Of a stretch of DNA of 64,000 nt, positions 4,113 through 55,638 are shown piece by piece. Position 1 is the first letter of the stretch. Each line of letters starts with the position of its first letter. The stretch is from the NCBI GenBank assembly GCA_918797485.1, contig CAKKNE010000004.1, positions 3,472,001-3,536,000 of the forward strand. The letters run 5' to 3'. The translations under genes were made by a program, and so were the position numbers. Below the pieces are notes generated by a model, which ran no database searches, was not told the origin of the DNA, and saw nothing but the letters and a program-made list of their open reading frames with translations. Source of the stretch: Pelagomonas calceolata (Eukaryota).

Positions 4113-4135
4113 CTAGTATGTCTAAGGCCGCTAGC
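4113..4135 (+). promoter_or_regulatory. CTAG-bounded upstream motif (variant)
   Basis: ctagtatgtctaaggccgctagc between divergent genes. Confidence 0.55.
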
Positions 4136-4283
4136 AAACAGGACAGGAAAAAAGGGGGGGTAAGAGGCCCTGTCCGTGTTGGCGGGGATTCTCTGACTTG
4201 ACATCATCAAAAAAAAGGCCGCAGCGGGAGGCCAGGTTGCTTCCAGCGCATAAAAAGCGCTCCCAGACGAGCTGTGGCTCCCA

Positions 4284-5378
4284 ATGCAAGGCGCGGATGC
4301 AGAGCGGCGCGAGGCAGGCGAGCGCCTCGCCATCCAGACCTATTTCGTGGTCGCCATCCTCGTGGTGGCCGTACCGCTCGCGACCTACCATGAATACGTC
4401 GCGCGCGGCGCGGGCGCGGGGCTGCTGTCGCCGACGGACGCGGCGAGGACGCGAGCGGACATCGCCGCGCGGCTCGAGGGCTTCGGGCGACCGCCGCGGC
4501 GGGCGGCGCGGCCCGTCGCCGGCGCGTACAGCGTCGAGGTCGTCTCGGTGAACGGCGCGGCCGTCGACGCCGACGCGACGCTCGGCGCGCTCGTGCGCGC
4601 GGTCGACGCGCGCGCCGGCGTCCGCGCGGCGCTCTCGACGCGCGAGCTCTTCGTCGACGCGGCGCTCGCGCACGGCGGCCGCGAGCGCTACGCGCTGGAC
4701 ACCGTCCGGGTCCTCCTCGCCGAGGCGCGGCGCGCGCGGCACGCCGTCGAGGCGCCGTTCCGCGGACGCCACCGGACTTTGCGGTTCGTCGCGATCCCCG
4801 CCGCGCCGGGGGCGACCATCGAAGGCAACGGAACCGCGGTGATCGCCGCAGCGCGCGGCGCAGCGGCGGACCCGGGCGGCGCGGCCCTCGTGCACGCCGG
4901 GGCCGGCGGCGCCGACGCGTTCCTCCGCCTCGCCGCGTCGCGGCTGCGCGCGGAGTGGGGCCTCGGAGCGGGGGCCGCGGACGCCTTCCGCCTCGCCGAC
5001 GCCGAGGCCGACGCGCTGGCGGTCGCCGCCGCCGAGGCGGCGCTCGCCGACGCGTTCGACCGCCTCGACGACCTCCGCGCCGTCGGCCCGCTCGCGCGGC
5101 CGTCCGACGCGCCGGCCGTCGCGGCGCGGCTCCTGGAGGCCGCCCGGACTGCGCGCGACGCGCGCGCGGCCGCGACGGCCCTCCGCGGCGCCGCGGACGC
5201 GCTCGACGCCGCGCTCGACGACCCGGCCCTCGCGCTGCCCGCGCGCATGCCCATCGAGCACCTCGCCGCCGTGTACGCGCCGATCGTCGCGCCGCTCGTG
5301 GCGCCGCTCGTCATGGGCTGCGCCAAGGAGACGCGGCGGTACCGAGCGACTGCGCGCGGCGGCGCCAAGGAAGACTGA
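4284..5378 (+). CDS. GPI transamidase component PIG-S-like protein
   Basis: N-terminal TM (YFVVAILVVAVPL) and a C-terminal DDPALALPARMPIEHLAAVYAPIVAPLVAPLV..KE resembling the PIG-S C-terminus. Confidence 0.6.
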   Translation: MQGADAERREAGERLAIQTYFVVAILVVAVPLATYHEYVARGAGAGLLSPTDAARTRADIAARLEGFGRPPRRAARPVAGAYSVEVVSVNGAAVDADATLGALVRAVDARAGVRAALSTRELFVDAALAHGGRERYALDTVRVLLAEARRARHAVEAPFRGRHRTLRFVAIPAAPGATIEGNGTAVIAAARGAAADPGGAALVHAGAGGADAFLRLAASRLRAEWGLGAGAADAFRLADAEADALAVAAAEAALADAFDRLDDLRAVGPLARPSDAPAVAARLLEAARTARDARAAATALRGAADALDAALDDPALALPARMPIEHLAAVYAPIVAPLVAPLVMGCAKETRRYRATARGGAKED

Positions 5379-5649
5379 TGTGTAACCCGAGGGCTTGTTT
5401 GCTTTGCTTAGAGCTAGGCCGCCTAGCAACCAGTGGCACCACGACCCTGACGACACAGCTTGACGTTGACACGACCATCTCACGACTTGTTATTTTCTGT
5501 ACGAGCTTGTAGGAGCTTGTAGAGGTGCTTCGGCCGGAAATCTGGTCGCCGCGGTGCACGATGCAGCACCAGGCAGCACCAAGTGCAAAAGAAAGCCTGA
5601 AAATGATCGACCGGGGCTGCCATGAGGCCGCGCGTCCTCTGGGGCTGCC

Positions 5650-7436
5650 ATGAGGCCGCGCGTCCTCTGCTTGTGCGGCCTCCTCGGAGCAGGATGCAGC
5701 CTCACCATCTATCCGCCGGCGCCGGGCGACGAGGTCGACGCCACTGCTCATTTATCGATCGACGGCCGAGAGCTGCCGCTCGTCGTCGAGCCCGGCTCCG
5801 GGAAGCGCTGCGACGGGCACCCGGCGCTCCCGTCCAGCCGCGCGCGCTTCGCGAGCGACGGGACCACGCGCGCCATCCTCAGCCTCGGCGCGACGCGCGG
5901 CGCGAGGCTGCGCGCCGTGGGAAGAGACGTGCGAGTCGACGCGACGAACGGCTCCTTGGCGTTCGTGCTCGACCGGCCGGACCACTACGTGCTGCGCGTC
6001 GCCGGCCGCCGGTTCTACTTCTGGGTCGACCCGCTCGCGGCGCTGGCGCGGCCCGCGGGCGCGGCGTCGTACGACGCGGAGCGGCGCCCCGGCGACTGGC
6101 TCGCGCGGGCCCTCGACGCCGGCCCCGTGGCCCTCGAGGCGGGCCTCCACCGCTCGCCCGCGTTCCTGATACCATCCCGCGGCGAGCTGCACCTCGCCCC
6201 GGGCGCGGTCCTGCGCTACGACGGGAGTGGCGGCGGCGCCGGCTTCGTCACCGTGCGAGGGGAGAACGTCACCGTCGGCGGCGTCGGAACGATAGACGCG
6301 TCGGACTTCGGGCCGGGGCACAACCTCCTCCTGGACGGGGCCACGCACGTCCGCGTCCTCGACGTCTTCTTTACGAAGAGCAGATGGTGGGCGCTGCGCA
6401 TTCGCGACTGCGACGACGTGGCGCTCGACCGCGTCAAGGTCTTTAGCGGCACCGACGGCGTCGACGTCGACGCGTCGCGCGACGTGCGCATCGGTCGGGC
6501 CTTCGTGCACGCCTGGGACGACGCCATCGCGATCAAGGCCACGGTCGCCGCGGAGGCGCGGGGCGTCCTCGCGGAGCACTGCCTCGTGTCGAGCCGGAAG
6601 TCCGCCTTTAAAATAGGCACGGAGACGCTCGGGGACATCCGGGACGTCACCGTCCGCCGCTGCGACGCCTTCGAGACGGCGCGCGGCGTCTTGATGGTGG
6701 GCAAGGACGGCGGCCGCATAGGAGACGTTCTCTTCGAGGACCTCTCGATTCAGCTGCGCGCGTACGCGGACGAGCCCAAGGCGGGGCGACCCATCGTCGT
6801 GGAGCTCATGCGCCGGCTCGGCAGCTCGCGGTTCCGAACTGTGTGGAAATCAAAATTTCACGGCGCCGTCGTGCTGAATCGTCCCGTCGTCCTCCACGCC
6901 ATCGACGCGATGCCTGCTCGATGGCGTGGCGATGCCGGTTCCTCACCGCTCGACCGAACCAGGTCGGCCGCGTCAAGTGCACCCGGCGCACTGGTTGATT
7001 TCCACACAGGTTCCGAAACGTGGTCTTCCGAAGAGTGCGGAGCGATCTGCGCGCGCCGCTCTATTTCGGAGGCAACGCGCGGACCGCGCTCTCCGGGATC
7101 CGGCTCGTCGACGTCGAACTGGCCGTGGCCGCCGCGCCGTCGCCGACGAGATCGTTCCTCGCGGAGTGCTCCGAGGTCGCGCCGCGGGGCGTCGCGAGCG
7201 AAAACCTCACGGTCCGCTGGAACGGCTTCCGCAGAGCGTGGGCGGGCGTCTCCGATCGCGGCGGCGGCGCGGACTGCGGGTCGCTCTGGGTGGCGACCGT
7301 CCACACGGCCGTCGAAACCTGGCGCCGAAGCGGCGTCGCGCCGGCGCTGCGGCGGCGCTTCGGACGCGACGACGCCGCGAAGCGGAAGTCCGCGCGCGCG
7401 GAAATGGCCTCTCGCGTGCGCGAGGGGGCGAGTTAG
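5650..7436 (+). CDS. Secreted GH28-like/pectin-lyase-fold glycoside hydrolase; exons 5650-6830, 7010-7436
   Basis: Signal peptide; GTDGVDV, WDDAIAIK, AFKIGTE. Removing intron 6831-7009 joins ORF 5650 to the frame of ORF 7020-7436 (SSRFRNVVFRRV). Confidence 0.8.
6831..7009 (+). mobile_element. Introner intron (GT-AG, 179 nt)
   Basis: TSD gttccgaa at 6831-6838 and 7010-7017 (perfect); TIRs ctgtgtggaaatcaa / ttgatttccacacag. Confidence 0.95.
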
Positions 7437-7617: not shown

Positions 7618-7640
7618 GCTAGCGGTCTGTAAGATACTAG
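7618..7640 (-). promoter_or_regulatory. CTAG-bounded upstream motif
   Basis: Reverse complement ctagtatcttacagaccgctagc, ~60 bp before ATG 7702. Confidence 0.7.
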
Positions 7641-7701
7641 GGATGCCTAGCAAGCAATGCACAAGCATTATGGACATGATTGGCTGCCGCACTGAACTAA
7701 C

Positions 7702-9025
7702 ATGAAGCCATCACCCCCCAGCAGCCGACTGCCGCGGTGGGCGACAGGCGCCGGGCTGCTCGTGCTGCTGCCCGTCGCGGGCTGGGCCCTGGGGCGGCGC
7801 TTTGCACAAGCCCGCTGCTCGGAGACGGCCACGCTGCTCGGGTCCGACCCGCGGCTGGCAAAGCACGCTGCGCAGACACGCGAGGCGAGGGGCGAGGCCG
7901 TGTTCCCGCTGGCGTGGCCGGCGCGGGCCAAGATGCATAAAAGAGAGCCGGAGCCACTTTACAACGCACCGAACCCGACGCAGCGCGTCGCTTTCGTCGT
8001 CGCGGGCGGCCTGCGGACCTTCGCGAACGCCAACGCGCATAGATCGCTCTTCTGGCACGGGCTGCGCGCCCTCGGCGGTTCCGTCGAGGCCATCTTCGTG
8101 GTGTCGACGGACCACGGTTGGCACTCCGACGGCCGCGACTTCCTGCGTCGCTCGCACCACGCGGACCGCGCGAAAATACGAGACGCGATCGCTGCGTTTG
8201 ATCCCGTCCACGTCGAGGTCCACTCGAACGCCGACTGTTCGAACGAGACGATCGCCCGCCGGATCGCGTGCTGCCCCGCCGGTAACCCAGACTCCAGAGT
8301 CCCCCAGACGTACCCCAGGCTCCAGGCGTACTGGCTCGCCGCGTCACTCGACGTCGTCCGGGCGCGCGAGCGCGCGGTCGGGCGCCCGTACGACTGGGTC
8401 GCCAGCATACGACCCGACCTCGTCCTGTTGGAGCCGCTGCCGGTCCTCGCGAACCTTGCGCCCACGCGGCTCTATGTGGCCGCGAAGACCTTTACGACGT
8501 CCAACATCTGGGACGTGTTCTTCAGTGCGGAAATCAACCAGTGCGTCGGGCCGGCCTGGAGGTATTATTTACTATTCTGGCCGCCTCGACGCAGCGCGAG
8601 AGTGCTTGGCGTCCTCGCACGAGGCGTCTTAGGCTTACTCACCCGAACGTTTGATTTCCGCACAGGTGCTCTTCCTCGTGCCGCGCGCGCTTGTCGCCGA
8701 CTTTGGCGCGAGCTTCGCGGCGGTGCGCGACGCGTGCCACTCCGAGGCGCTCGAGACCCAGCTCCGGGACGAGTGGCGAACGAGGGGTGTGCCCTACCAG
8801 GCGTACCCGTTCGCGGCGACGCTCCTGCGGAACGAGGGCCACCTCGACTGCGGGTACTTCCGACACACCGCGCTCGACCTCTTCGGGTCGTCGCGCGGGC
8901 GCGCCGGCGGGGCAGCCGTCGACCACGAACAGTGGTGCGGCGAAATCTCCGGCCGCATCTCCGGCGGCGCCGCCCTCTTCCCGCCTGTGAACTGGACGCG
9001 GACGACTAAAACAAAGCCAAGCTAG
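7702..9025 (+). CDS. Type II membrane protein, possibly glycosyltransferase-like; exons 7702-8514, 8666-9025
   Basis: N-terminal TM; RVAFVVAGGLRTF and YDWVASIRPDL motifs. Splicing gives IWDVLFLVPR. Confidence 0.65.
8515..8665 (+). mobile_element. Introner intron (GT-AG, 151 nt)
   Basis: TSD gtgttctt (8515-8522) / gtgctctt (8666-8673); TIRs cagtgcggaaatcaa / ttgatttccgcacag. Confidence 0.92.
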
Positions 9026-9045: not shown

Positions 9046-11761
9046 TTAAGTAAAGTCGCCCGGTCGCCGCCGCCGCTTGGACTTCATCAGGGCATTCATG
9101 TCTGGCGTGAGGATTTCTCTCGTCATCCGGAGGAGGGTGTCGCTGGGGAGCGCTCTGCGCTGTCGGTCCGTGATGGCCGACAATTCCGTAAGCGCCCGAT
9201 GAGCTGCGTGGACGTCAGGCGTGTCGACGATGCTCGGTTTGCCGATCAGGTCGGCCGGTGTCGTCGGCGCGGCGCCTCGGCGGCGCCGCGGCGCCGTCCG
9301 CCTCGCATCTCGGATTGAGTCGGTGCGTAGTGCGCTCATCGTGACGGCGAGCGCGTCCCTGTAGGCCCCTTCGTCGTCTTCGATCTCCCTCGTCTCTGAC
9401 CCTTGTTCCGTTGACGTTCTAGACGCGCGTTCCAGCCCCTTCACGACGCCCACACGCGACGCGCCACTGTCGCGCCGAGCGGGGCGCCGCGCAAGCGCGT
9501 CCTCCACAGCCGCAGCGGCCTTGGGAGGCGAGCGGGCCCACGAGGTCTCCAATGCATTCGCGACGCGCCGTTCCAGCGCGGCCTCAAACTCGTCGCAGAT
9601 GCGCCCGTAGGCAGGCGGCGGGGCACCCCCCTTCTTCGCGGCGCCAGATCTAACAAGGGCATCGAGTGCCGCTTTCGCCTGGACGTCGCGCCGGGCATTT
9701 ACGATGCGCTCGAAGTTTTCCCGTTGTTTCGCGCCGTCGTTGAGCTCGAGCATTGCCTCAAAAAACGATCGCGGGACTTCGAGCAACATGCTCCGCCGAG
9801 TCGTCGTCGCCGTCGCGAGGAAATGGGTCAGACCCTCTGCGATCTCGACGTCGCCGAGCATGGAGCCGGGCCCGAGCCGCAGCAGATCGACGCGTTCCCT
9901 CCGACTACCGACGGCGACGGCGCCCTCGAGCTTGAGCTCGCCCTGCACCTGTGTGGAGATAAACCAGTGAGCGGACGATAATTCTTCACAAAGTCATTTC
10001 TCGGCGACAACGTGGCAGTGATGACTGAATCGAGGGGTGTAAAGCCCACACCGCCACGCCATCGAACAGTCATCGTGTCGATGGCGTGGATGCTATGATT
10101 CACCCGTATGCGAGAACACCCGCAAAATTTGATTTCTACACGGCCCTGCACCACGAACGCGATGGTGTCGCACTGCAAGCCGCGCCTCGCGACCGCTGCA
10201 CCGGCACAGACATGACGTTTAGTCGACCTCTCAGCGAGCTGCATAAACGACTCCGGCCGCCAATGCTTGAACGGTCCGAGATCCCGAAAGAACTTTCGCG
10301 TCTGCATGATCTCAACTCGCCGGAGGTGCTCGACGGCGAGTGCGTTTCGGTAGTCGTCGCCCCGCACCTCAAGTACCACGCAAGGTTCGATGCACGCCGC
10401 CGTGTCGACGTACGGCGAGTCGGCGCTCGACGCGCCAGTGACGCCGACGCTCCGGAGCAGGGCCCCCTCGCCGAGGCCCGTGCCGGCCTGTGTGGAAATC
10501 AAATTTCGGGCGCCCCACGCCGTCGTGCCGTCTCCTTCATTGAATCAGCTCGACTGCGTGGAGGTTCCACGCCATCGACGCGACGGTGTCCCATGACCGC
10601 GTCGGCTCGATGGCGTGGAGGCTCACGAAGATCCACGCAATATTTGTCAGGATAACCTAACTCACTGGTTGATTTCCACACAGGTGCCGGCCACGACGTC
10701 CTTGGTCGCGACGCCGAGCGTGTCCCACTCTGGGTCCGCCTCCGGCCGCGGGCGGCGCGCCTCCGCTGGCGCTGGAGCGGCGGCGGCCGGCGACGGCGCG
10801 TCGGCAATTCTTTGCGCCGGCACCGGCGCTTCGGCGACGTGAGGTGAGGCCGACGCCGCCGGCGTCGGGGCTGACGTCGCGACGCCGAGCGTGTCCCACT
10901 CCGGCGGCGGCGAGCACGCCACTCCGGAGGTCGCGGACACGTCCTCCGCGGGCGCCGCCGTCGGCCGCGGGCTCGCCTCCGCGGGCGCCGGAGCGCCGGC
11001 GACCGGCGTGGCTGCAATCCCTTGCGCCACCGCCGGTGCCTCGTCGACCGTGCCGCGCGCAGCGCGGGCGAGCTCGTGCGGTCGGCGCCGCAGGACTGCC
11101 CGTCGATCGCCATATAGTTCCCGGCATTCTCGCGTCATGATCGGCGTCGAGTGGCGGAAGAGCTTGATCAAGCCCGCGTGCAGCACGTAGTACTTGTCGG
11201 CGACGTCTCCCTGGAGCCACAGCAGATCCCCGGCCGCGCGCTCGGTAACCGCCAGGTGCTGGCCTGTGTAGAAATCAACCAATGGGAGATGTGCACCACC
11301 ATGCCGTCAAGCCGCCGTGAAATTTGTTTTCCACACGAGGTGCTGACAGAGTCCGGGCAGCGCCGAGGCGTCGGCGCCGGCGAACGCGCCGGACGCCCAC
11401 GCGACGAGGTCGGCGACGACGGCGGCGTCCCTCTCCCCGGGCGCGTGTTCGCGGAGCGTCGCGAGCATTGCGTCGTGGCGTGCCCGCCGCGCCTGTACGT
11501 GAATCATGATTCAGCAGCGGCGGAGACGCTTGGTTTCCGCGACAATTTGGTTTATGCACTGCGCCTCGCGCGAGCGCCCCTGGTTCGTCTCTCCTCGCGT
11601 AACTTATGCAACCAGACGCGCCAGGCTCCGTACAGCTCCCGCTGGTTTGCCAAAGCTGCCTGCCGGGCCATCCTGGTGAGGAACCGCTTCAGGAAGGCTG
11701 CCCCCCGGGCGTCGGTGTCCCATGCTGCTGCTCCCGTTTCCTTCTCTTCTAAAGCCATCAT
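9046..11761 (-). CDS. Protein with two cyclic-nucleotide-binding-like domains; 5 exons: 11761-11570, 11492-11348, 11263-10692, 10487-10152, 9948-9046
   Basis: LLWLQGDVADKYYVLHAG..GTGLGEGALL and VARRGLQCDTIAFVVQGEL..LGPGSMLGD. Five track ORFs join in frame after removal of four introners. Confidence 0.85.
9949..10151 (-). mobile_element. Introner intron (GT-AG, 203 nt)
   Basis: TSD ccctgcac (+ strand 9941-9948 and 10144-10151, perfect); slightly diverged TIRs; spliced FVVQGELK. Confidence 0.93.
10488..10691 (-). mobile_element. Introner intron (GC-AG, 204 nt), inserted in reverse orientation
   Basis: TSD gtgccggc at 10480-10487 and 10684-10691 (perfect); perfect 15-bp TIRs; spliced DVVAGTGLGEG. 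Confidence 0.95.
11264..11347 (-). mobile_element. Short introner intron (GT-AG, 84 nt)
   Basis: TSD gtgctggc (11256-11263) / gtgctgac (11340-11347); diverged TIRs; spliced GLCQHLAVTE. Confidence 0.9.
11493..11569 (-). mobile_element. Short decayed introner intron (GC-AG, 77 nt)
   Basis: TSD cgccgcgc / cgcctcgc; gene-sense ends cagtgcataaaccaaatt ... tgattcacgtacag; spliced GARARRARHD. Confidence 0.8.
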
Positions 11762-11820
11762 CGCGCTCTTGACACAGCACAGCAGCCCAGTTTTAGAGAG
11801 GGCGCTGCGTCAAAGAGCTT

Positions 11821-11843
11821 GCTAGTATCTTACAACCGCTAGC
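11821..11843 (+). promoter_or_regulatory. CTAG-bounded upstream motif
   Basis: gctagtatcttacaaccgctagc, 60 bp upstream of the minus-strand start at 11761. Confidence 0.7.
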
Positions 11844-11941
11844 TATCTGCTGCGGGTTTCTACATCGATAGCGTACTTTTGTGGGCGGAGATATGTAACA
11901 AATCACTTACTAGTGGACTGCGTCTTCGATGGAGTGGGCGC

Positions 11942-14732: not shown

Positions 14733-15308
14733 ATGTCCGGCAAGAGCCAGAGCACCCAGATGGACGAGGACAAGGTCGTCGATTACTGCGGCGCCAGCGG
14801 GGCCAAGAAGGCCAATTTGACCACGCCGCGCCTGATCATTACGTCCAAGACCGGCCCGTACACGACGGTCAGCGCCGACGCCACGGTCGAAGACACCTGC
14901 CTCAAGGTCGGCGCGCCGACCGCCGGCCTCACGCACCTCATGCTCCACCTCCGGATGGGGGACGTCGAGATGGACGGCGACGGCGACGCGAACAACCCCG
15001 ACGTCACGGTCCTCATTAACGCGTCGACGAAGAAGAACAAGTTCGTCTCCGCCTTCCTGCCGGCGCTGGCCGCCTTGGCCCTCACGGGCCGCATGGAGCG
15101 CCGCGCGGCGGCCATCGAGGACTGCATCAACGAGACCGGCGAGCTGCGCAAGGAGCTCGCCCGAGACGCGGCGCGCGCGTGCCTGGTACGTCTCGCGCGT
15201 CGCGTCGCCGGCGTCGCCCGCCGTCGATCCTCCCCCGCGCAGGCCGACCTGCCGAACAAGACGACCGACGAGGCCTTGGCCACGGTGGGCAAGGCCAACC
15301 GCGTGTGA
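14733..15308 (+). CDS. Hypothetical protein
   Basis: 191-aa ORF with A-rich leader (aaaacATG) and high GC3. No family recognised. Confidence 0.55.
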   Translation: MSGKSQSTQMDEDKVVDYCGASGAKKANLTTPRLIITSKTGPYTTVSADATVEDTCLKVGAPTAGLTHLMLHLRMGDVEMDGDGDANNPDVTVLINASTKKNKFVSAFLPALAALALTGRMERRAAAIEDCINETGELRKELARDAARACLVRLARRVAGVARRRSSPAQADLPNKTTDEALATVGKANRV

Positions 15309-15953: not shown

Positions 15954-15977
15954 GCTAGTGTCTTACATGCCGCTAGC
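15954..15977 (+). promoter_or_regulatory. CTAG-bounded upstream motif
   Basis: gctagtgtcttacatgccgctagc upstream of the M28 peptidase. Confidence 0.7.
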
Positions 15978-20661: not shown

Positions 20662-20682
20662 GCTAGCGGTGTAAGACACTAG
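20662..20682 (-). promoter_or_regulatory. CTAG-bounded upstream motif
   Basis: gctagcggtgtaagacactag between divergent genes. Confidence 0.7.
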
Positions 20683-20911
20683 AATGCTATTTTTGGTGCG
20701 GCGTTTTTTGCACGCCGGCATCGCGAGCACAAGGATCGTGCGTGCGGAAAAGCCCTAGGAACTAGTACCCTCCTTCACATCTGGCAGCTGCCAGGAGAAG
20801 CGCGCGAACCTCGATCATTGGAAAGCATCTGACTTGCCAGTTGATTCTAAAACACAACCGCAAGAGCCAAAACAAACACAAGAAGCCAAAACAAACACAA
20901 GAGAGCCAGAG

Positions 20912-22515: not shown

Positions 22516-22534
22516 ATTTCACACTACATACATA

Positions 22535-23403: not shown

Positions 23404-24172
23404 GGTGCAGCTCTGGTGCAGCTGTGCACAGGCTCTGGTGTGATGGCCTCAGGGCTGCGGTGCGGATGCAGCCGTACGAAAAGTGATCTCCGCGTGCTCC
23501 GGAGGTACTTTGCAGGCCTCTAGGAGGCACGCAGACTCGTCGCAAAAGCCAGGCAAGCTAGCTATTGAGGCTCTAGCGGCAAAGCCGAACGACTACCGAG
23601 GGCGTAAGCTTTGCGATAAATCAAATTGCAATTCCTACGAATAGTCTCGTGTCGTGCGTCGAGACCCGTGTGACGGCCGCCCCCGCGTCGCCCTCGGCGC
23701 GAGGGCGCAATGCTGTGTTCTCGTCTCCGTCGCTTGGGCCCGGGGAAGGACGGGCCGCTTGTAGGAATCGCCAGGGAGTTGTTTTTCGGCCGAGGGAGGA
23801 GGTACTAAGACGCCGGACGCGCGGCGCGCCCAGCATGCCCAAAAACGCCAGTTTGCTAGATTCGTCCGGTTGGGCGGAGCAATAGGCTGCGGCAGGGGTG
23901 TTCCCACGGCTCCTAGACACCCCAGAAGGCAGCTGAAAGCTGATGACGACGGCCACGCGCAGCTGTAGAGGACGTCTATCTACAACCCCGGCTAACCTGG
24001 GCCCGTCACCACCCCCGTGCGGCTTGCTGGTTGCAATCTTTGCCGACGGACGCAGCGTGTTGGCGAGCGTCGCGTCGCGGGACGCCAGCTTCGGAGTCTC
24101 GGATCCAGCCTCGCTCATAGCCCCAAAACAGCGCCGCGGCACGCCCGTGGCGCCCCCAAACGGGACCCAGAC

Positions 24173-26715: not shown

Positions 26716-26739
26716 GCTAGTGCCTTACAGGACGCTAGC
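26716..26739 (+). promoter_or_regulatory. CTAG-bounded upstream motif
   Basis: gctagtgccttacaggacgctagc between divergent fabF and USP. Confidence 0.7.
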
Positions 26740-29645: not shown

Positions 29646-29668
29646 GCTAGTGTCTTACAGCACGCTGG
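29646..29668 (+). promoter_or_regulatory. CTAG-bounded upstream motif
   Basis: gctagtgtcttacagcacgctgg upstream of GDI. Confidence 0.65.
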
Positions 29669-29866
29669 GACACGCGGCATTAATTTTCATTTTTCGCGCA
29701 TCTAATCGCTGCCTGGGAGCTGGGCATCGCTGCGGCCTCATCGGTGATCAGTTCGCGCCCGCAGCCCGTCGCTGCGCGTCGCTCAACGCTCGCATCCACC
29801 GCTGCGGCTCGCTGGATAAAATAAACAAATAGAAATCGAGGAGAGCGGCCGCTCAGTAGTAAAACC

Positions 29867-32299: not shown

Positions 32300-32489
32300 C
32301 GGTCACGAATTCGGCCTGCAGCAGGCAGCAGGCAGCAGCAGCTCTTAAAGCATCAGTCCGCGATTTCAACGCTCTCGCGCAGCCGTGCGCGGCACAGCTG
32401 CGAGCAGAGAGTCTACTAGCAGCCCCCACGCAGTCCCAGCACGATTGATGGCGGAGCAATCACTCAAAAAGCTCCGGCACTGCTGCACA

Positions 32490-32510
32490 CTAGCACGTTA
32501 TTACGCTAGC
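32490..32510 (+). promoter_or_regulatory. CTAG-bounded upstream motif, subtype B
   Basis: ctagcacgttattacgctagc; similar to the reverse complement of 55616-55638. Confidence 0.5.
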
Positions 32511-36221: not shown

Positions 36222-36245
36222 GCTAGAGTCTTACAATCCGCTAGC
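36222..36245 (+). promoter_or_regulatory. CTAG-bounded upstream motif
   Basis: gctagagtcttacaatccgctagc upstream of MTN. Confidence 0.7.
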
Positions 36246-41401: not shown

Positions 41402-41425
41402 GCTAGTGTGTTACAGACCGCTAGC
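41402..41425 (+). promoter_or_regulatory. CTAG-bounded upstream motif
   Basis: gctagtgtgttacagaccgctagc upstream of the HECT gene. Confidence 0.7.
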
Positions 41426-41854: not shown

Positions 41855-42074
41855 GGTACGTTCTCGCGTGCGCTGTCCTGTTATTGCTGGAATAGAGTCG
41901 CAGTGCTCTCCTCCAATCAATTCTCTCGACCAGTCCTGGTGTTTATGGCACCACTTGGCCCGATCAAATGCCCTCTCCTGCCCAAGTCTCGCAGGCGAAG
42001 TTGGGCTGGCCTTCGAAACGAGTCTTCCACGGCCATTCCCTCAGCCATGCACGAGTGGTATGAGGCGCGGACGT

Positions 42075-42096
42075 CTAGCGGCCGTAAGACACTAGC
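42075..42096 (-). promoter_or_regulatory. CTAG-bounded upstream motif
   Basis: ctagcggccgtaagacactagc between divergent genes. Confidence 0.7.
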
Positions 42097-44482: not shown

Positions 44483-44503
44483 TGACTTTTTAAATTGAGC
44501 TGA

Positions 44504-44525
44504 GCTAGTGTATAACGGTACTAGC
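44504..44525 (+). promoter_or_regulatory. CTAG-bounded upstream motif (variant)
   Basis: gctagtgtataacggtactagc upstream of the kelch gene. Confidence 0.5.
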
Positions 44526-44740
44526 TGGCTCAAATCACGCAGAGCGTCACTCAGATCTCGTTCCTTTGCGCGGTTTCTGCCTTGATCGCGCAGCAGTTGC
44601 CTCACCTGAAGCCTATGCAGTGCGCCTGAGCAGCAGAGCGGTCGCAAATATCGCCTACATAGCCAAAAGCAGACTCAGATCAAAGGGCCTCCAGTGCTCC
44701 GAGTCGACGCACGTCGAACTGACGCTCAAAAACACACCCC

Positions 44741-45835: not shown

Positions 45836-45890
45836 GGTTGGCTTTGTTCCCTTGTCCTATAAATTTCCTACAGAATTAGTCACACAGAAC

Positions 45891-47414: not shown

Positions 47415-47508
47415 TTTTTTCTTGCCTTTCAGACGCGTGGCGATACACATTGATCATCCATGGAACTTTTGAGGTCCAATTTGTAAGCCTTCGGCGCAAA
47501 GCGTGAAA

Positions 47509-47536
47509 GTATGGTATGGTATGGTATGGGATGGTA
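47509..47536. repeat. (GTATG)n microsatellite
   Basis: gtatggtatggtatggtatgggatggta. Confidence 0.85.
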
Positions 47537-47746
47537 CCTTAGGGCATGCTAGGCCCACTTATTTTTTTTACTTCCTACTACCGGTGACCCACCTCAAATT
47601 ATTGGCACATAAAAGGAGATACCCATCTGGCTATAAAAAAAATAGTAGGTGGTAGGCAGGCGGGGGTGGCATTGTCGCTGTGATCGTCGGACGCGCGAGG
47701 ACATATACTACAAAGACTCCTTACACACAAACAGAGCAACCCATCA

Positions 47747-49267
47747 TCAGGGATGCGCACTCGTATGAACGCACGGCACGTCGCCCAACGCCTCCGTCAT
47801 CGGCCGCGTGATGTCCAGCCGGAAGCCGTGCATGTTGTCGCCGTCGGCGCAGGCGGCGCCCGGACGGGGCACGACGTTCAGGCACCGGACGACGTTCGAG
47901 CAGCCGGGCACGCTCCTCACATCTATCCCCGTCGCGACGACGCCGCACGGCGTCGACTGCGAGCAGTGGAGCATCGCGGCGACGCCGGACGTTTGCCATC
48001 CGACGATACCGGACACTTTCACGTCCGACACCGCGACGGCGTCCGTCTCGTTCGCACAGACCCCGGGATGCTGACTCTCGGGGCAGTAGAATTGATCGAG
48101 CACGAGCGGATGGTAAACGCCGCGCACGTCGAGGTTCGAGAACGTGACGTTGCGCACGCGGCCGCGGCCACCCTGCCACGTCTTCACGCGGGCCGCGTTC
48201 GACGTCCGATAGAAGCGGACGTTCGCGATCAAGACGTCCTCCACGGACTGCTCCGTGTGGCGCTCGCCGAGGCTTCCAATCGATAGTCCGTGGCCCTTGT
48301 GGAAGAGGCCCCCCAGCACCTGGACGCGCCGCGAGCCCTCCTTGATGGCCACGTTGTCGTCTCCCGTCGAGACGTGGCACTTGCTGATGGTGACGTCGGA
48401 CGAGGCCAGCACGTCGACGCCGTCCGTGTTGACGCTCCCGGGCGGCGTCGCAATACGCAGTCGGTCCAGGGTGACGCGCTCCGAGTCCAGCACGACCACG
48501 TGATAAAACGGCGACTCGACCAGAGACAGGTACCGCACGGCGCAGTCGCGCGATTCCCGAATCACCAGCAGCGCCGGCGCCCGGACCTCGGGTCGTACCT
48601 TCCTCAGCGCCCACCACGGCTGGCCCTGCCCTTGGATGGTCCCGCGCCCCGATATGACGATAGCACGGCAGCGCCTCAGTTCCAGAAACGCGTACCGCAT
48701 ACGCTGCCGCTCCGCCGACAACGCGGAATCCTCCCGCGGCGGCGGCGGCCAGCGTTCCATGGGAGGCGCCCGCACCGTGCCGTCGATGCGGATCTCCAGG
48801 TCGGTCTCATCGACCAGCTCTATTGGCGACAGCAAAAAGGTATGGCCCGCGGGCAAATGCACGACTGCATTTGTCTTGCCCCGCGCCGCGGCGACGGCAG
48901 CTTCGAAAGCAGCTCTGTCGTCCACGACGCCGTCGCCCTTGGCGCCGTGGTCCATGACGCTAATCATCGCCGTGTGACTGCTCCCGGCTGCCCGTGCGCG
49001 CTCTTCGTCGTGCGCGCGCGCGTCCTTGGCATACGCCGCGTCCGCCTTGGCGAGCCACTGCTGCGTCCGATCGGCGATTTCCACGATCTTCTGCTTGTAA
49101 GAGTCCACGAGATCCTCCATGCCCGCATCGCGCGACACTTTGAGGATCAAGTCTTTTCGCGTGACCCGATCTCTGGCGCGGACCAGGACCGTGTCGCGCT
49201 GCTCGTGGTTGTGCGGGCGCGCTGCTGCTGCGGCGACGGCCACCAGCGTTAGCGCTCTATGCATCAT
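47747..49267 (-). CDS. GH28 polygalacturonase-like, paralog B (tandem duplicate)
   Basis: Same motifs as paralog A, with long near-identical DNA tracts. Confidence 0.92.
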   Translation of the reverse strand: MMHRALTLVAVAAAAARPHNHEQRDTVLVRARDRVTRKDLILKVSRDAGMEDLVDSYKQKIVEIADRTQQWLAKADAAYAKDARAHDEERARAAGSSHTAMISVMDHGAKGDGVVDDRAAFEAAVAAARGKTNAVVHLPAGHTFLLSPIELVDETDLEIRIDGTVRAPPMERWPPPPREDSALSAERQRMRYAFLELRRCRAIVISGRGTIQGQGQPWWALRKVRPEVRAPALLVIRESRDCAVRYLSLVESPFYHVVVLDSERVTLDRLRIATPPGSVNTDGVDVLASSDVTISKCHVSTGDDNVAIKEGSRRVQVLGGLFHKGHGLSIGSLGERHTEQSVEDVLIANVRFYRTSNAARVKTWQGGRGRVRNVTFSNLDVRGVYHPLVLDQFYCPESQHPGVCANETDAVAVSDVKVSGIVGWQTSGVAAMLHCSQSTPCGVVATGIDVRSVPGCSNVVRCLNVVPRPGAACADGDNMHGFRLDITRPMTEALGDVPCVHTSAHP

Positions 49268-49345
49268 TGTTTTGCTGCTATCTGCGGCATCGATAACAAC
49301 AGGGGCCGTGCCTTTGCGCCTGTCTCGTCTCGACCGAGCAGATTA

Positions 49346-49368
49346 GCTAGCGTCCTGTAAGACACTAG
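49346..49368 (-). promoter_or_regulatory. CTAG-bounded upstream motif
   Basis: gctagcgtcctgtaagacactag between divergent genes. Confidence 0.7.
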
Positions 49369-49531
49369 AAAAATTAGAAGCCTCGAGCTCCTTGGGAGCG
49401 GCACGTGGATCTCCGGCTGCGCGACCCTCTTCGCAAACGTTGTCGTGGTACCGAGGACACGCTCGCTTCTAACTCGCAGGATCGCCGCCTAGAAGAGGCA
49501 GCCCAAGCCCCAGAGACCCTACGCCAGGAGT

Positions 49532-50170
49532 ATGGCCGACGAGCCCGAGTGGGCGCGGCAGCCCCCGCCGGCGCCGCCGCCGGCCGCGCCGCCCGCGGCG
49601 GCGAGCCCCGAGCCGGACTGGGCCAAGCCGGCGCCCGCTCCATCAAACGAGCCCGCGTGGGCGCGGACGCCGGCGCCGGCCCCCGCGCCTTCATTGAATG
49701 AGCGCGTCGGCGCCGCCGTTGTCGGCGCGGCGATTGGGGCAGCCAAGCCGCCCATGGACATGTCCTTCTTAAATTTACCGAAGCCGATCCTCGCGATGCG
49801 GTTCATGAACGTGCTGAGCGCCTTCATGCTGAGCTTTTGCGCTATTACCAAACTCATGACCACCGATAGATTGGCGCCGGGCATCGTGGCGGTCTACATC
49901 TTTATTTTTGCCGTGGCCATTTTCCTCTTCGAGCTGCACATTCCGCAATTAGGAAGGGGCCTCGCGGAGAATTTGGGGTTCCTCTACTCGGCGATGGGCC
50001 GCTTCTGGTTCCTGATTCTGGTGGCTATATTGGCAGCGTCGGGCCACGGTTTGTGGGGCATCTTCACGGTCATTCTGGTGGTGTGCACGGCCGTCGTGAA
50101 CGCGCTCATCTGGTGGAAGTACCCCGACTACGAGAAGGGCTGCCGCATCGTCGACCTCGGCCAGGCCTGA
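49532..50170 (+). CDS. COPI-associated/TVP15-like small multi-TM protein
   Basis: Y..IFA..IFLFE...ENLGFLYSAMGRFWF pattern; about 4 TM helices; Pro-rich N-terminus with EPxWA repeats. Confidence 0.75.
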   Translation: MADEPEWARQPPPAPPPAAPPAAASPEPDWAKPAPAPSNEPAWARTPAPAPAPSLNERVGAAVVGAAIGAAKPPMDMSFLNLPKPILAMRFMNVLSAFMLSFCAITKLMTTDRLAPGIVAVYIFIFAVAIFLFELHIPQLGRGLAENLGFLYSAMGRFWFLILVAILAASGHGLWGIFTVILVVCTAVVNALIWWKYPDYEKGCRIVDLGQA

Positions 50171-50217
50171 GGCATCCAATTCTCTGGAAATACATAATCA
50201 CACATTTATACACACTA

Positions 50218-51588
50218 CTAGCCTCGGAGGAGCACGTTCTCGACGGCCTGGAGCTCCTCCGCGGGGTCCTCCTCGGTCTGCACTGGTTTTGTTTCAAAAC
50301 CGTCGAAGTGCTTCCGCGCGACGAAGCGGAACGCGATGGCCGTGAGCAGAACAAGTACGGCGCAGAGGAAGAGGACCGCGGGTCGGCTCACGCCTAGATG
50401 GCCCGCGGCGACGAAGAGAAAACCGCCCATCAGGTCACCTACTGCCGTCGTTAAGAGGTAGAGCGCCGAGACGGATGCGCGCATCGCTTCGGGTGCTTTC
50501 TCGTACGAGTACTCGAGCCCGGTCACGCTCACCAGGATCTCGGCGACAGTGATGAGAAAGAGCTGCGGAAGCTGCCAGAGGATGTTCACGCGCTGCCCGC
50601 TGTTCACCCTCAGGTCCAGGAGACCAGCGACGACGAACGCGGCCGCCGCGACAATCATGCCGGCCATCATGCGCCATGGCGCGCGCGTGCTGACGCCCCG
50701 TCTTTCCAATGCCGGATATATAACCTTTTCGAAGAGCGGCAGGAGCAGCAGGATGAGGACGGGGTTGATGACGCCCATCGTCTCCGGTTGTAGTTTGCCC
50801 TTGAAGTTCTTCATCTCCGACGCCTGGACGACCCAGATGCTCCCTTGCTGGTCGTAGAGCATCCAGAACACGGGCAGCAGGACCATCACCTCGCCAATCG
50901 ACCGCAGCTCCCGGGCGTCGTCGTCGTCCGGCACGCGCCACGCGCACGCGCGCCAGATGGCCGCCGGCACGCCGACGCCGCCCTCGCGCGGCGGCAGCAT
51001 CGTGTATTTGCGCCGCCCTCCAATAAAAACGGCGAGGGCCGCCGCGAGGAGGACCGCGGGCACGGCGAACGCAGCAGCGTAGCCAAAAATGGCCCGCATG
51101 GCCGGGACGAGGAGGTACGAGAAGACCGAGCCGAGGTTTATGGACGCGTAGAACACGGCGAAGTACCGCCGCGTCGCCTCGCTCGCGTCGCCGATCGCGT
51201 TGTCGATTTGATCCGCACCGAACGTGGACACGCAGGGCTTGATGCCACCCGTACCCAAGCCGACGAACACCAGGGCTACGATCGTCCAGGGAAGCGACGC
51301 CACGGCGGCCGCGGCCACGAGGACCCACAGGCCGACGGCGTAGACGCTGCCGAAGCGCATGATCGTCGCGTAACGGCCCCAGCGCTCGTCCGACAGCCAA
51401 GCGCCGACCAACGGCGCGGCGTAGGCGAGCGCCGAGGTGAACATGAAGCCAGCCGCCGCGCTGCTCTCGCGCATGTCTAGGCTGACGAAATAGAGAGTGA
51501 GGATTGCTCGAAAACCGTAGTACGAGAACCGCTCCATGCCTTCCATAAGGATGATGCGCCAAACATGCGCAGGCGTGCCTGCCAGCAT
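50218..51588 (-). CDS. POT/PTR (SLC15) proton-dependent oligopeptide transporter
   Basis: EGMERFSYYG, GAWLSD..WGRY, GTGGIKPCVSTFGADQ, FYASINLGS, GLEYSYEKAP. Confidence 0.95.
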   Translation of the reverse strand: MLAGTPAHVWRIILMEGMERFSYYGFRAILTLYFVSLDMRESSAAAGFMFTSALAYAAPLVGAWLSDERWGRYATIMRFGSVYAVGLWVLVAAAAVASLPWTIVALVFVGLGTGGIKPCVSTFGADQIDNAIGDASEATRRYFAVFYASINLGSVFSYLLVPAMRAIFGYAAAFAVPAVLLAAALAVFIGGRRKYTMLPPREGGVGVPAAIWRACAWRVPDDDDARELRSIGEVMVLLPVFWMLYDQQGSIWVVQASEMKNFKGKLQPETMGVINPVLILLLLPLFEKVIYPALERRGVSTRAPWRMMAGMIVAAAAFVVAGLLDLRVNSGQRVNILWQLPQLFLITVAEILVSVTGLEYSYEKAPEAMRASVSALYLLTTAVGDLMGGFLFVAAGHLGVSRPAVLFLCAVLVLLTAIAFRFVARKHFDGFETKPVQTEEDPAEELQAVENVLLRG

Positions 51589-51789
51589 GCTTGCTTGCTC
51601 TCGTCGGACTGCGGCAGGTGCTGTGGAGCGGCGGGCAGCTTTGCACCCAAGCCGTGCCGCTATTTATGCGAAAGCACGAAGTGCAGGCTACGCAACGAAC
51701 TAGTAATGTCTATGCGTGGCAGTGCTTGTAATTTTAGCGTACCGACAGCCCGGAGAAGCACTCAAATAGCAAGCCGTAATCCCGCGTGG

Positions 51790-51813
51790 GCTAGCGGCAT
51801 GTAAGACACTAGC
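51790..51813 (-). promoter_or_regulatory. CTAG-bounded upstream motif
   Basis: gctagcggcatgtaagacactagc; also shares the flank aatcccgcgtgg with the 7606-7640 copy. Confidence 0.7.
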
Positions 51814-51836
51814 AAATGTGCAATCTCCGTACTTAC

Positions 51837-52932
51837 TCACCCCGGCACGGCAACGGGACTCGAGAACGTCACGGTCCGCAGAGCCGCCGTCTCGTCCGGA
51901 GGCCGCGTCGACACGTGGACGACCGCGGGCCAGCTCGACCCGGGCCGGTACACGGTCACGGCAGTGTAATCGGGGTCAGCCCGTCTCTCGCGCGGCGGCT
52001 TTCGTTTCGGAGACTTCGGCAGCGTCATATCGAAGCGCTTCGTCCGGTCGAAGGCCCCGAGCAGGGCCTGCATCGGCTTCTTGGCCGCGGATACCTTCCG
52101 ATACCTCGGGGGCACCGCCGCGGCCCGCTTCCGCCGCGACAGTTCGGCGTCGAGCCGCGCGGCGAAGGGTCGCCGCGGCCGCGTCGAGCGCGCCTTCGGC
52201 GGCGGCGGGTCGACGCACGCGGCCCACTCGGCGCACTTCTCGATGACTCGCAGCTGGTCGAGCTGTTTGCGCTTCTCCGGCGACGTGGGGGACCCGGGAC
52301 CCATGAGCGCGTCGAGCATCTGGCGCCGCCGCGCGACGGAGATCTGCGTCTCGACTGCGAGCAGGTCGCTCGAGCCCTTCGCCGCCGTCTTTCGGAGCTC
52401 GGCCGGCCGCAGTCCGTTCGTGATGGCGAAGTCGCGGAACTCGTCCATGTTCAAGCCAGGTTCGCCGTCAGCGTCCTTCTCGTTGATGGCGTTGGCGAGC
52501 CGCTCGACGGCGGCCCGGTCCCGGGCCACGCCCAAAATGGCCATGGGCTCGATGAGCTCGCGAGCATCGACAGAGCCGTCCCGCGTGACGTCGAGCGTGC
52601 GGAACCAATCCTGCGTGGAGGTCGACCGGTGCGTGCCCTGCTTTGGACGAGGGGAGCGGGTCGCGTCGATGGCGTCTCGGTCGACGGATTCCAAGGACGC
52701 CGCGTCGCACCTCGACGTCCCGCTTCTGCTCGTCCTTCCGCCGCAGCATCTCGTAGCCGACGAGGCCGTGGATCTTCGCGTGCTTCACCGTGTCGACGCG
52801 CTGGCTCTCGGCCCAGGCGTCCTGCAGGATCTTCTTCCGTCGCCGGGTGTCGCGGCTCAGGGCCGCGAGCTTCTCATCGGCCGTGGGCTCGCGCTTGCTC
52901 TTGCCGATGGAGAGGTCGAGGAGGTCCAGCAT
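51837..52932 (-). CDS. EF-hand protein; exons 52932-52711, 52610-51837
   Basis: Splicing gag|gtgcga...ccacgcag|gat gives RDVEDWFRTLDVTRDGSVDAREL (EF-hand) and a second degenerate loop DADGEPGLNMDEF. Confidence 0.75.
52611..52710 (-). other. 100-nt GT-AG intron, decayed introner-like
   Basis: 3' end caccggtcgacctccacgcag and internal cgccatcgacgcga shared with the introners. Confidence 0.8.
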
Positions 52933-53486
52933 GGTGCTGCTGGGGTAGGGTTAGGTTAGCCGCTCCTACGTGCTCCTTAGCTTGGCAATCGTTCGTGCCG
53001 GAGGGAGGCCGACTGCGGGCTGCAGCAGCACGCACACGGGCTGCCCGAGAGCCCCAGGGGAGCTCACGGAGGCTGCCCCAACGCGAGCATCTCCCAGCGT
53101 CGGGTTTTGAATTGCTAGCGCCATAATTGCGGCCCGAGGCCTCTCCCGACCCCTCGCCCCGGGCTCCTCGACGACGGATACGCCGCAGAGACCTCACCGG
53201 AGCGGACCCCCACCCTGGCGAGGTTAATGATGCAGCGGCGCCTCGATCGAGGCGGGACGTCTTCGGGGAGCCCGGCTCGGGCGATTTTCGGGGCGTGGCA
53301 GCCTCCTTCGCCCCAGCGGGCAGCCGTCTGACCCTCGGAAGCGGCGGGGCAGGCCCTGCGGCGCCGCTAGGGCCCTGCCAGCGAGCGCGCGCTCCTGGAA
53401 ACTTGGCAAGCCGGCGCGCGGGAGCGGCGCGGCGCGCGCGGAACTTGGCGCTGCGCGCGCGGGAGCGGCGCGGCGCGCACACGGCG

Positions 53487-55418
53487 ATGGCCACGCGCGT
53501 GAGCGCGACGGCGCCTACGTCGTGTCGACGACGATGGTGGCCCCGGGCCCTGCTTATGATAGCGGCGGCGGCGGCGCAGTGCGACTATAATGACGATTCC
53601 TGCATCGTCATCGTCGCCTGCGGCGACTCGATCACGCGCGGCGGTCACGGCACGAAGGGCTGGGACTGGCCGGAGCTCGTCCAGGACGAGCTGGGCGACA
53701 ATTATCTGGTCATCAATAGAGGCGTGAGCGGCTCGACGCTCACGGACTTTACGGACCGAGCCTGGATCGACACGTCGCACGGCGAGGAGGCGTTGGAGGA
53801 CTCGCGCAAGGCGAACGCGTTTGTTGTTGCTTTAGGTACGAACGACGCGAAAAGTGGGGGCGACGAGCCCATCTGGCCGCTCCTTGGGCCCCACGAGTTC
53901 GCGGACGCCTACGAGCACGTCCTCGATGAGCTGAGGGACGCCGCCGACGAGGAGCCCATCATGTTCGTGGCGACGCCCATCCCGCAGTCGGAAGATTCGG
54001 GGAAATGGCCGGACGTCGACATCCTGAACGTCGAGATGCCGCCCATCATCGAGGGCATCGCTCATGATAATGATGCTATTCTAATTGATGCGCACCTCGC
54101 GGACTTCTACGACGCAAATGGTGATGTAGACCCCCAGTTTTATGATGATTCTGTGCACCCGAACGACGCCGGCTACAAGCTCATCGCCTCGGCCGTCGCG
54201 GACGCGATCCGACAACAGTTCCCGGCGCCGTCGCCGCGGCCGACGCATAAACCGAGCTACGCGCCGACCGTGCGGCCGTCGTCACGGCCTTCGCCGCGGC
54301 CTACATTTATACCGTCGCCCGCGCCGACGCCGCGGCCGACGACGCCCGCGCCGTCGCCGGCGCCTTCATTCAGGCCAACCCAAAAGCCGTCGCCCGCGCC
54401 GTCCTCGATACCGACGGCGGCGCCCACGCCGGTACCGCGCGCCTCGTCCAATAAACAGGACGAGCCCGTCTCGGCCGCGGGCGCCGCGGTCGGCACCGTG
54501 CTGGGCGCGTTCGTGCTCGTGGGGTCCTACGTCTTGGTCCAGGGCGTCCGGAAGCTGCGGCGGAAGAAGGAGCGCGTCCAGGGCGCGACGGACTCGCCGC
54601 CGCCGCCGCCGTCGTTCTCGCCGCCGGGCGACGAGAAGGGGCTCCTGTCGTCGCCGGACAACTGGTGGCGCAAGCGTTTGGCGGGAGGCACGTCGCGCTA
54701 CGAGCATAGTGATGATGACGTGCGCATCACGGTCGACTTTGGCGGGCGCCGCGTGCCGGTGGCGAACGCACGGTCGAACTCGCCAGCCGGTTTTGGGAAG
54801 TGGTTCCGGCCGCTGTCGCCGCGGCGCTTTCTCTGGAAGAACTCCTTCGATGCGAGTGAGGCGGCCTGCCCGACGCCCGACGGCGAGGAGGTCAAGGAGG
54901 AGTACCCTGATGATCGTGTCAAGCGGCCGACGCCGCGGCGGCCCTTGGGGGAGGCCTCCGACGTCTTCGCCATCGAGATGTCGCCGCGGTCGCACTCGCC
55001 GACGCCCACCGATAGTAGTTTTGCCGAGTCGCTCGGCGAGTCGGACGTGGTGGTGGTGGCGCTCGACGTCGACTCGCAGAGCGCGCGCTCGGAGTCGCCT
55101 CCCTTGGAACCGTCGCCCGCCACGCCGCCGACGTCGCCTCTCCAAAAACTCATGAAGTCGGTCTCGAACAGCATGCTGGGCAAGAACAGCTGGGCGAAGA
55201 CGCAGGCGTCGCCGGCGGCGCAGCGCGCGCGGCGGCGCGCGTGGTCCGAGACCGACGACTTCTCGCGCGGCACGCCGTCGCCGCCGGCCTCCGACGACGT
55301 CAGCTCCGAGGCGAGCTCCGTGCCGCCGCCGCCGGCGGCGCCGTCGCCGCAGCCGCCCTTCGGGTCCCCGGCGCGGTTTCCGCAACCCATCTTCGCCGAC
55401 GACTCGGACGATCTCTAG
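53487..55418 (+). CDS. SGNH/GDSL esterase ectodomain + Pro/Thr/Ser stalk + TM + low-complexity tail
   Basis: GDSIT, NRGVSG, LGTND, DSVHPN..GY; PTxxPS repeats; TM AVGTVLGAFVLVGSYVLV. Confidence 0.88.
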   Translation: MATRVSATAPTSCRRRWWPRALLMIAAAAAQCDYNDDSCIVIVACGDSITRGGHGTKGWDWPELVQDELGDNYLVINRGVSGSTLTDFTDRAWIDTSHGEEALEDSRKANAFVVALGTNDAKSGGDEPIWPLLGPHEFADAYEHVLDELRDAADEEPIMFVATPIPQSEDSGKWPDVDILNVEMPPIIEGIAHDNDAILIDAHLADFYDANGDVDPQFYDDSVHPNDAGYKLIASAVADAIRQQFPAPSPRPTHKPSYAPTVRPSSRPSPRPTFIPSPAPTPRPTTPAPSPAPSFRPTQKPSPAPSSIPTAAPTPVPRASSNKQDEPVSAAGAAVGTVLGAFVLVGSYVLVQGVRKLRRKKERVQGATDSPPPPPSFSPPGDEKGLLSSPDNWWRKRLAGGTSRYEHSDDDVRITVDFGGRRVPVANARSNSPAGFGKWFRPLSPRRFLWKNSFDASEAACPTPDGEEVKEEYPDDRVKRPTPRRPLGEASDVFAIEMSPRSHSPTPTDSSFAESLGESDVVVVALDVDSQSARSESPPLEPSPATPPTSPLQKLMKSVSNSMLGKNSWAKTQASPAAQRARRRAWSETDDFSRGTPSPPASDDVSSEASSVPPPPAAPSPQPPFGSPARFPQPIFADDSDDL

Positions 55419-55615
55419 TCCCGGCTTTCACCCCGGGACGCTCTCTTAATTTATTAGCTGTGAATTCTTGTCTCTCTCTGTGTGCCCGCGGCGACGACGA
55501 TGTCGAGGCTGAACGTAGCAGTTCGCCTTCTTACAGTAGCGAGAGCGCTCTCAGTGACGGTTAATGGGACGCGTTTTTGTGTACGTGTTGCTTCCCACCT
55601 TTTCCGGTCCATTAT

Positions 55616-55638
55616 GCTAGCGTGATAAACGTGCTAGC
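55616..55638 (-). promoter_or_regulatory. CTAG-bounded upstream motif, subtype B
   Basis: gctagcgtgataaacgtgctagc upstream of the KRE6-like gene. Confidence 0.5.

Follow-up and report, generated by a model that had tools for sequence, protein, structure and literature searches.

In this study, we followed up a recurrent CTAG-bounded motif of 22–24 bp that a reading of the sequence alone had noticed in a 64,000-nucleotide stretch of the genome of Pelagomonas calceolata, an abundant oceanic picoalga (contig CAKKNE010000004.1 of assembly GCA_918797485.1, positions 3,472,001 to 3,536,000 of the forward strand; hereafter, the window). The motif is real, and it probably represents an orientation-free core promoter element, analogous to the TATA box, at which a putative general factor docks and places the start of transcription ~25–30 bp beyond the element's edge. 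Observed directly were its intergenic place, the presence of one copy per promoter region, its occurrence in both orientations, its spacing from RNA 5' ends, the uneven conservation of its letters and the T-tracts beside it. The sequence-only reading had proposed a DNA site for a general factor, a proposal strengthened by the near-fixed short distance at which the motif lies upstream of RNA 5' ends, by the two orientations and by the uneven conservation. The motif is apparently an undescribed, as well as very frequent, core promoter element: in agreement with the earlier statement that no element of such form was known, no description of it was found in the literature searched (subscription journals lay outside the search), and its literal strings matched only one unrelated retracted paper. 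Three pelagophyte papers (PMC9481584, PMC13284251 and bioRxiv 2024.10.30.620910) use neither the word promoter nor the word motif in their main text, and the motif is absent from the text of the PMC9481584 supplementary notes (in part; their figure pages lay outside the search).

The motif and its place between genes

In its fuller form the motif is a double-stranded DNA element of 22–29 bp whose extended consensus, drawn from 123 metagenome sites among the matches listed, is GCTTG-CTAG-TRTCTTACA-N1-4-CG-CTAG-CT. Two inverted CTAG-centred half-sites, their starts 16–19 bp apart, enclose an asymmetric TRTCTTACA core followed by a variable spacer of 1–4 bp. Among the sites listed, the left extension GCTTG is present at 47–74% per position and the right extension CT at 87% and 57%, the flanks past these extensions are close to background composition, and the preferences of the left flank do not mirror those of the right. 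The described sequence was found at all 15 positions reported for it, but the pattern as first worded proved too narrow: it is exact in only three of the 13 main copies (11821, 15954 and 51790), and the consensus extends beyond it to GCTTG and CT. Within two mismatches it held for 11 of the 13, those at 4113 and 44504 carrying five each, and a subtype of the motif stands at 32490 and 55616. When the window was simulated ten times with an order-4 Markov model, no match arose with up to four mismatches and, at five, there were 0.8 matches per window, so the 11 window copies are far beyond chance; the support for the five-mismatch copies and the subtype copies rests on position as well as sequence.

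The window is compact, GC-rich and eukaryotic, with mostly single-exon genes of unrelated functions (Pfam matches in 24 of 32 open reading frames, ORFs), and the earlier remark that the flanking genes are functionally unrelated is borne out by Pfam. Against gene models built from ORFs, Pfam matches and RNA joints, by which 17% of the window is intergenic, none of the 15 copies overlaps a gene (p ~3e-12), as had been claimed, and the nearest start codon lies 62 to ~215 bp away, in agreement with the ~60–230 bp first given. The statement that the motif stands upstream of most genes was right in that it is frequent, but the frequency amounts to ~60%, a full copy being present in 15 of the 25 promoter-bearing intergenic regions of the window by a count from sequence and RNA. 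There is one copy in each such region and two in none, as the expression one per divergent promoter implied; however, full copies are found in seven of 11 divergent and eight of 14 tandem promoter regions, so the motif is not mainly or specifically an element of divergent promoters. Its occurrence in either orientation was confirmed, since the gene of a tandem promoter lies four times on the right-half side and four times on the left-half side, and L025 and L056, which are homologous loci, carry it in opposite orientations. The density in the window is one copy per 4.3 kb, and extrapolation of 15 copies per 64 kb to a genome of 32.4 Mb, which carries 16,667 genes (PMC9481584, in part), would give ~7,600 copies.

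A scan of metagenome contigs for the exact pattern found at least 123 sites at at least 120 loci, the same scan of viral contigs gave no match (0), and prokaryote genomes gave seven. Among the metagenome copies listed on loci of at least 1 kb, just one of 82 lies in a long ORF rich in G+C at third codon positions (GC3), compared with 206 of 400 random places. Of 44 listed metagenome sites flanked in each direction by 500 bp, 30 had a start predicted by a simple gene finder no farther than 400 bp away in one direction or both, versus 99 of 300 random places (p 2e-5); none of the predicted starts was closer than 50 bp, and the median distances were 152 bp on the left and 186 bp on the right. Five of 18 proteins checked beside metagenome copies share a 90% cluster with named proteins of P. 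calceolata, one motif-locus protein has 67% identity to a Chrysophaeum protein and 61% to an Aureococcus protein, and none of the 18 locus proteins looked up led to the assignment of a motif locus to a genus other than Pelagomonas. Six of the seven prokaryote matches are in marine bins with algal-looking neighbours; the seventh, inside a low-GC bacterial ORF, we read as chance. Bacterial and archaeal marine bins carry motif-bearing segments of algal appearance (loci L121, L122, L123, L124, L125 and L127), some of them apparently joined to bacterial genes within one contig, and these bins are likely chimeric or contaminated assemblies.

Spacing from RNA 5' ends

RNA reads and contigs were mapped to window positions 32200–52100 and 11500–31000, the basis being the 11 of 15 and 13 of 25 end rows, and the 24 of 1,649 and 16 of 343 contig pieces, that were listed. 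Ten of the RNA 5' ends listed are in regions with a full copy, and six of these lie 25–29 bp from the near edge of the motif, the full series of distances being 25, 26 (with a further end at 35 for the same gene), 26, 28, 28, 29, 45, 101, 134 and 159 bp. A rough model in which ends are uniform over 200 bp puts the chance of six in ten at 25–29 bp at ~1e-5. Five of the six face the right half of the motif and one the left half, and alignment of the six ends puts the near CTAG at about -33 to -27. Contigs from two further studies (three runs, X4, X6 and X12) repeat the 25–29-bp spacing.

Individually, the copies at divergent promoters are the plus-strand copy at 15954..15977, with RNA contig ends at 16003 on the side of an M28 peptidase gene (26 bp from the edge) and at 15820 (134 bp); the plus-strand subtype copy at 32489..32510 between MJ1316 and NMD3 genes, with a contig end at 32538 (28 bp); the minus-strand copy at 42074..42096, with raw-read 5' pile-ups at 42122 and 42131 for a peptidase M3 gene (26 and 35 bp) and at 41973 on the side of the minus-strand gene (101 bp); the minus-strand copy at 49346..49369 between GH28 and COPI-associated genes, with a contig end at 49414 (45 bp); and three for which we list no end, namely the degenerate plus-strand copy with five mismatches at 4112..4135 (GT61-like and PIG-S-like genes), the minus-strand copy at 20662..20683 (DUF285 and WD40) and the plus-strand copy at 26716..26739 (ketoacyl synthase and UCH), the last being crossed by RNA contigs. 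At tandem promoters, the plus-strand copy at 29646..29669, whose right CTAG is broken, precedes a Rab GDI gene with a contig end at 29697 (28 bp); the degenerate plus-strand copy with five mismatches at 44504..44525 precedes a Kelch gene with a raw-read pile-up at 44550 (25 bp); the exact minus-strand copy at 51790..51813 precedes a PTR2 transporter gene with a contig end at 51761 (29 bp); and the plus-strand copy at 41402..41425 serves a minus-strand TPR-HECT gene with a contig end at 41243 (159 bp). The other tandem promoters hold the minus-strand copy at 7618..7641 (gene on its left-half side), the exact plus-strand copy at 11821..11843 (minus-strand gene), the plus-strand copy at 36222..36245 (nucleosidase/phosphorylase) and the minus-strand subtype copy at 55616..55638 (SKN1/KRE6-like gene). 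Two more ends lie near degenerate look-alikes: a contig end at 23539, 18 bp from a possible minus-strand copy at 23557..23577, and one at 47501, ~29 bp from a possible, highly degenerate plus-strand copy at 47530..47553 that is weak and was recognised by eye.

These distances suggest how such an element might work. A putative general factor with two DNA-binding domains would read both half-sites (A/C-C-R-CTAG-C-W, outward) across the 1–4-bp spacer, and the near half-site, at about -33 to -27, would take the usual position of a TATA box. TBP and TFIIB normally occupy about -38 to -24 and, because RNA-seq ends either coincide with the true start or fall downstream of it, the near half-site overlaps their place. 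The factor might therefore contact TBP and TFIIB or replace promoter recognition by them, and it would either be part of the initiation complex or load it directly, thereby positioning RNA polymerase II. The near-symmetry of the motif would allow either of its ends to serve as the side that faces the start, and the factor together with the T-tracts may keep the promoter free of nucleosomes, nucleosome exclusion being a likely second role.

Several observations weigh against a role in setting the start. Seven of the ten ends are ends of contigs, which cannot prove a start, and raw-read pile-ups mark only three of the ten, all in one sample. Among the ends listed, three of ten are 101–159 bp from the motif and one is at 45 bp, RNA contigs not only cross the 26716 copy but enter the 51790 copy, and ~120 reads of another locus include a copy of the motif. 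Promoters without a full copy are active at a sigma-70 gene (ends 23964–23973), at 13422 and at 28246, so the motif is not required. It is also not fully symmetric and may have a mild preference, since starts are somewhat commoner and nearer on the left-half side under a looser rule (40 of 50 versus 31 of 53 arms, p 0.02), an excess that another count gave as 32 of 64 versus 26 of 68 (p 0.22). The earlier idea of a bidirectional promoter used symmetrically is not supported: only one divergent pair has raw-read ends to either side, and these are at 26–35 bp and 101 bp.

The mapped RNA also brought out features of the surrounding genes. The sigma-70 factor gene, which is nuclear-encoded (24173–25315), has the highest expression of the 11500–31000 stretch and sharp 5' ends without a full motif. 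Between 13450 and 15820 two minus-strand regions that have no Pfam matches are transcribed at a depth of up to 35; the ORF at 14733 lies on the plus strand, which is not the one transcribed.

Constraint, flanks and competing explanations

The letters of the motif are unevenly conserved. The basis is 25 copies that have at most four mismatches and that the exact pattern had not selected, where chance would supply 0.3; matches number 198 of 200 for the CTAG letters and 248 of 275 for the interior letters (p 2e-5). Among the copies listed, 45 of 239 arms have an outward TTTT at 4–32 bp, compared with 10 that have one at 32–60 bp (p 5e-7), the excess being on both sides of the motif, and GC and CG are lower within ~80 bp of it. 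No TATA or initiator peak was found near the motif, with no TATA peak within 50 bp; the region at -30 holds a GC-rich, CTAG-containing sequence and not the directional TATAWAAR that defines a TATA box there. In the flanks GGCWGCC is enriched, but its position has no significance. The words GGGCAGCC/GGCTGCCC are enriched about tenfold within 250 bp of the motif in loci L001–L120, in both orientations and often near start codons, and are a possible second promoter or leader word.

An all-against-all comparison of loci gave three usable pairs of homologous promoters. Between L034 and L066 the motif is 96% alike, its 40-bp flanks 51% and 60%, and the next 100 bp 93%; between L017 and L111 the corresponding values are 92%, 68% and 67%, and 85%, with 46% as the random flank identity for comparison. 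In L025 and L056, the inverted motifs lie 118 bp from the same shared block. Because both members of a pair were chosen for having the motif, which tempers the support for a promoter element, these figures speak of retention amid drift and not of a rate. In a paralogous family the distance and orientation of the motif vary among members, and a member that lacks an evident start likewise has no motif in the 700 bases examined. One other DNA run that was mapped gave thin coverage, with near-identical sequence. We did not use L124 and L127 as a strain comparison, as their promoters are identical amid mosaic divergence, and L054 was dropped as a homologue of the window COPI gene because the match was spurious.

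The most serious competitor, although we think it unlikely, is that the motif is the site of a general regulatory factor of the yeast Reb1/Abf1/Cbf1 kind that does nothing but evict nucleosomes, the starts being near simply because the open region is short. Sites of those yeast factors with poly(dA:dT) are widespread, lineage-specific promoter sites at unrelated genes (PMC2897762, in part), and the motif resembles them in standing at many unrelated promoters, one copy to each and in both orientations, with adjacent A/T tracts and low GC and CG nearby. It differs from them in being much longer, in having two parts and in having its edge within ~30 bp of RNA ends, and the cluster at 25–29 bp appears tighter than exclusion by itself would predict. 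Nor was a CG signal phased from the motif, as 104 of 200 shifted controls reached the observed power; this is a sequence proxy, however, and the motif-bearing sequences have no detectable CG periodicity at all. A nucleosome-evicting factor overlaps with a start-placing one, and both could hold at once.

We regard as improbable the suggestion that the motif is a neutral trace of a tiny mobile element, whether a remnant, a footprint or a promoter-targeted insertion, with CTAG as its duplicated target. A duplicated target might account for the CTAG found at each end, the motif often has as its neighbour a distinct repeat of ~120 bp, which has a CTAG pair of its own and in L098 shares one CTAG with the motif, and the paralogous genes just described carry the motif at differing distances and orientations. 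However, the transposon remnant named as an alternative by the sequence-only reading has little in its favour among the 123 sites listed: duplications of 2–8 bp outside the motif are as frequent as in permuted data (a test that leaves the CTAGs themselves untouched), and in-register flank identity is random, reaching at least 20 of 30 in one of 8001 right and 0 of 7626 left flank pairs. Neutral decay would also neither spare the CTAGs nor confine length changes to the vicinity of one spacer, and the flank preferences are not mirrored. An old mobile origin followed by domestication is possibly part of the motif's history. That it is a replication origin or origin-licensing sequence lying in promoters by coincidence seems very improbable; its intergenic place, AT-richer surroundings and asymmetric core would suit one, but origins are usually much sparser than one per 4.3 kb, and the tie to RNA 5' ends would be left unexplained. 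Scarcely credible, finally, is an RNA hairpin in 5' leaders or a DNA cruciform. One strand does form a 7-bp stem, at -9.0 kcal/mol as RNA, and at least one copy elsewhere is found in polyadenylated (polyA) RNA, but the motif lies upstream of the RNA ends and on either strand, the other strand folds at -5.3, the DNA fold is weak (-2.7), the outer base pair shows no covariation (18 C-C versus one C-G among 120 sites listed) and there is no Rfam match in the window.

The adjoining repeat, up to ~120 bp long, starts GTTACGGTGCTAGGACTAG and occurs in the window at 28028–28064, 29518–29640 and 44451–44482, as well as in L004, L047, L060, L085 and L098. Its three window copies and the one in L047 each lie just past the 3' end of a gene and in the same direction as that gene, and the repeat may be a small mobile element targeting these promoters or a terminator or boundary element. 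Repeated introns of the introner type, with TGTGGAAATCAA...TTGATTTCCACACAG-like ends, are found at 6838–7020, 8524–8665, 22743–22857, 31106–31198, 31308–31469 and 35829–35925, the splicing of those at 35829–35925 and 22743–22857 being observed in RNA; introners are already known from P. calceolata (PMC9481584 supplement, in part). Coding stretches of low GC are located at 29900–31000 (part of the Rab GDI gene, 49% GC) and 56000–64000, with a very long ORF from ~58180 at 53–61% GC, and may mark the border of a centromeric region of low GC. A tandem pair of GH28 polygalacturonase-like genes occupies 45891–49267, with a third GH28-like gene at 5650.

Known promoter systems and implications

The closest counterpart that we found to an orientation-free element of this kind is the HomolD box of Schizosaccharomyces pombe, the octamer CAGTCACA/G, which lies 39–52 bp upstream of the start, works inverted, acts as a TATA analogue and is bound by the TFIIB-like Rrn7 (PMC10253590, in part). 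Like it, the motif is not a TATA box, stands a short, near-fixed distance upstream of RNA ends (by RNA-seq) and occurs in both orientations. In contrast to that 8-mer, the motif is three times longer, a bipartite pseudo-palindrome with a variable spacer, and it is found at ~60% of promoter regions, beside unrelated genes, and not mostly at ribosomal protein genes. Neither the octamer nor its inverse is contained in the motif consensus from the sites listed, two variants holding just GTGACT. Among the stramenopiles, oomycetes have the lineage-specific core motifs INR, FPR and DPEP, with no detectable TATA boxes; their positions are the start itself or downstream of it, DPEP mostly has the forward orientation, and INR with FPR is present in ~13% of genes (PMC3599244, in part). 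The P. calceolata motif is, by comparison, upstream, reversible and far commoner. The consensus of the oomycete INR is an initiator of the YCAYTYY type, and YCAYT has no positional peak near the motif. The X-box of RFX factors (consensus GTNRCC-N0-3-RGYAAC) has inverted half-sites and a variable spacer as the motif does, and we take the left end TTGCTAG to resemble an RFX half-site, but the two differ in overall length and in the right half.

In 14,639 of the 16,667 P. calceolata annotation rows (chromosomes 1–5 and the start of 6) we found no PF11781, which we take to be the Rrn7 zinc ribbon, no match (0) to the RFX domain PF02257 and, under what we presume to be their family numbers, no RFX, CP2, SNAPc50, TBP or canonical TFIIB. 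TFIIE, TFIIF, TFIIH, several TAFs and Brf1 are present in the rows of chromosomes 1–5, and the TBP and TFIIB genes are probably on chromosome 6. Aureococcus has an ordinary TBP with its four phenylalanines in place (PMC7221094, in part), making TBP loss in P. calceolata unlikely, and we drew nothing of the sort from the gap in the rows.

A bolder proposition, conceivable though doubtful, is that in Pelagomonas a single long element, usable either way round, has taken the place of TATA and initiator recognition at most genes. A two-headed factor specific to the lineage would then read it from the TBP position, with the start measured from the gene-facing end and with the element possibly derived from domesticated mobile-element ends. 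The frequency of ~60% points to one dominant putative factor. The motif could be used as a predictor of start sites for annotation and as a part for expression vectors in this alga, and also as a lineage marker, since six of the seven matches in prokaryote genomes look like algal fragments. If a start-placing role is true, the length of the element, its presence in ~60% of regions, its reversibility and its fixed distance would together represent an unusual solution to start-site selection.

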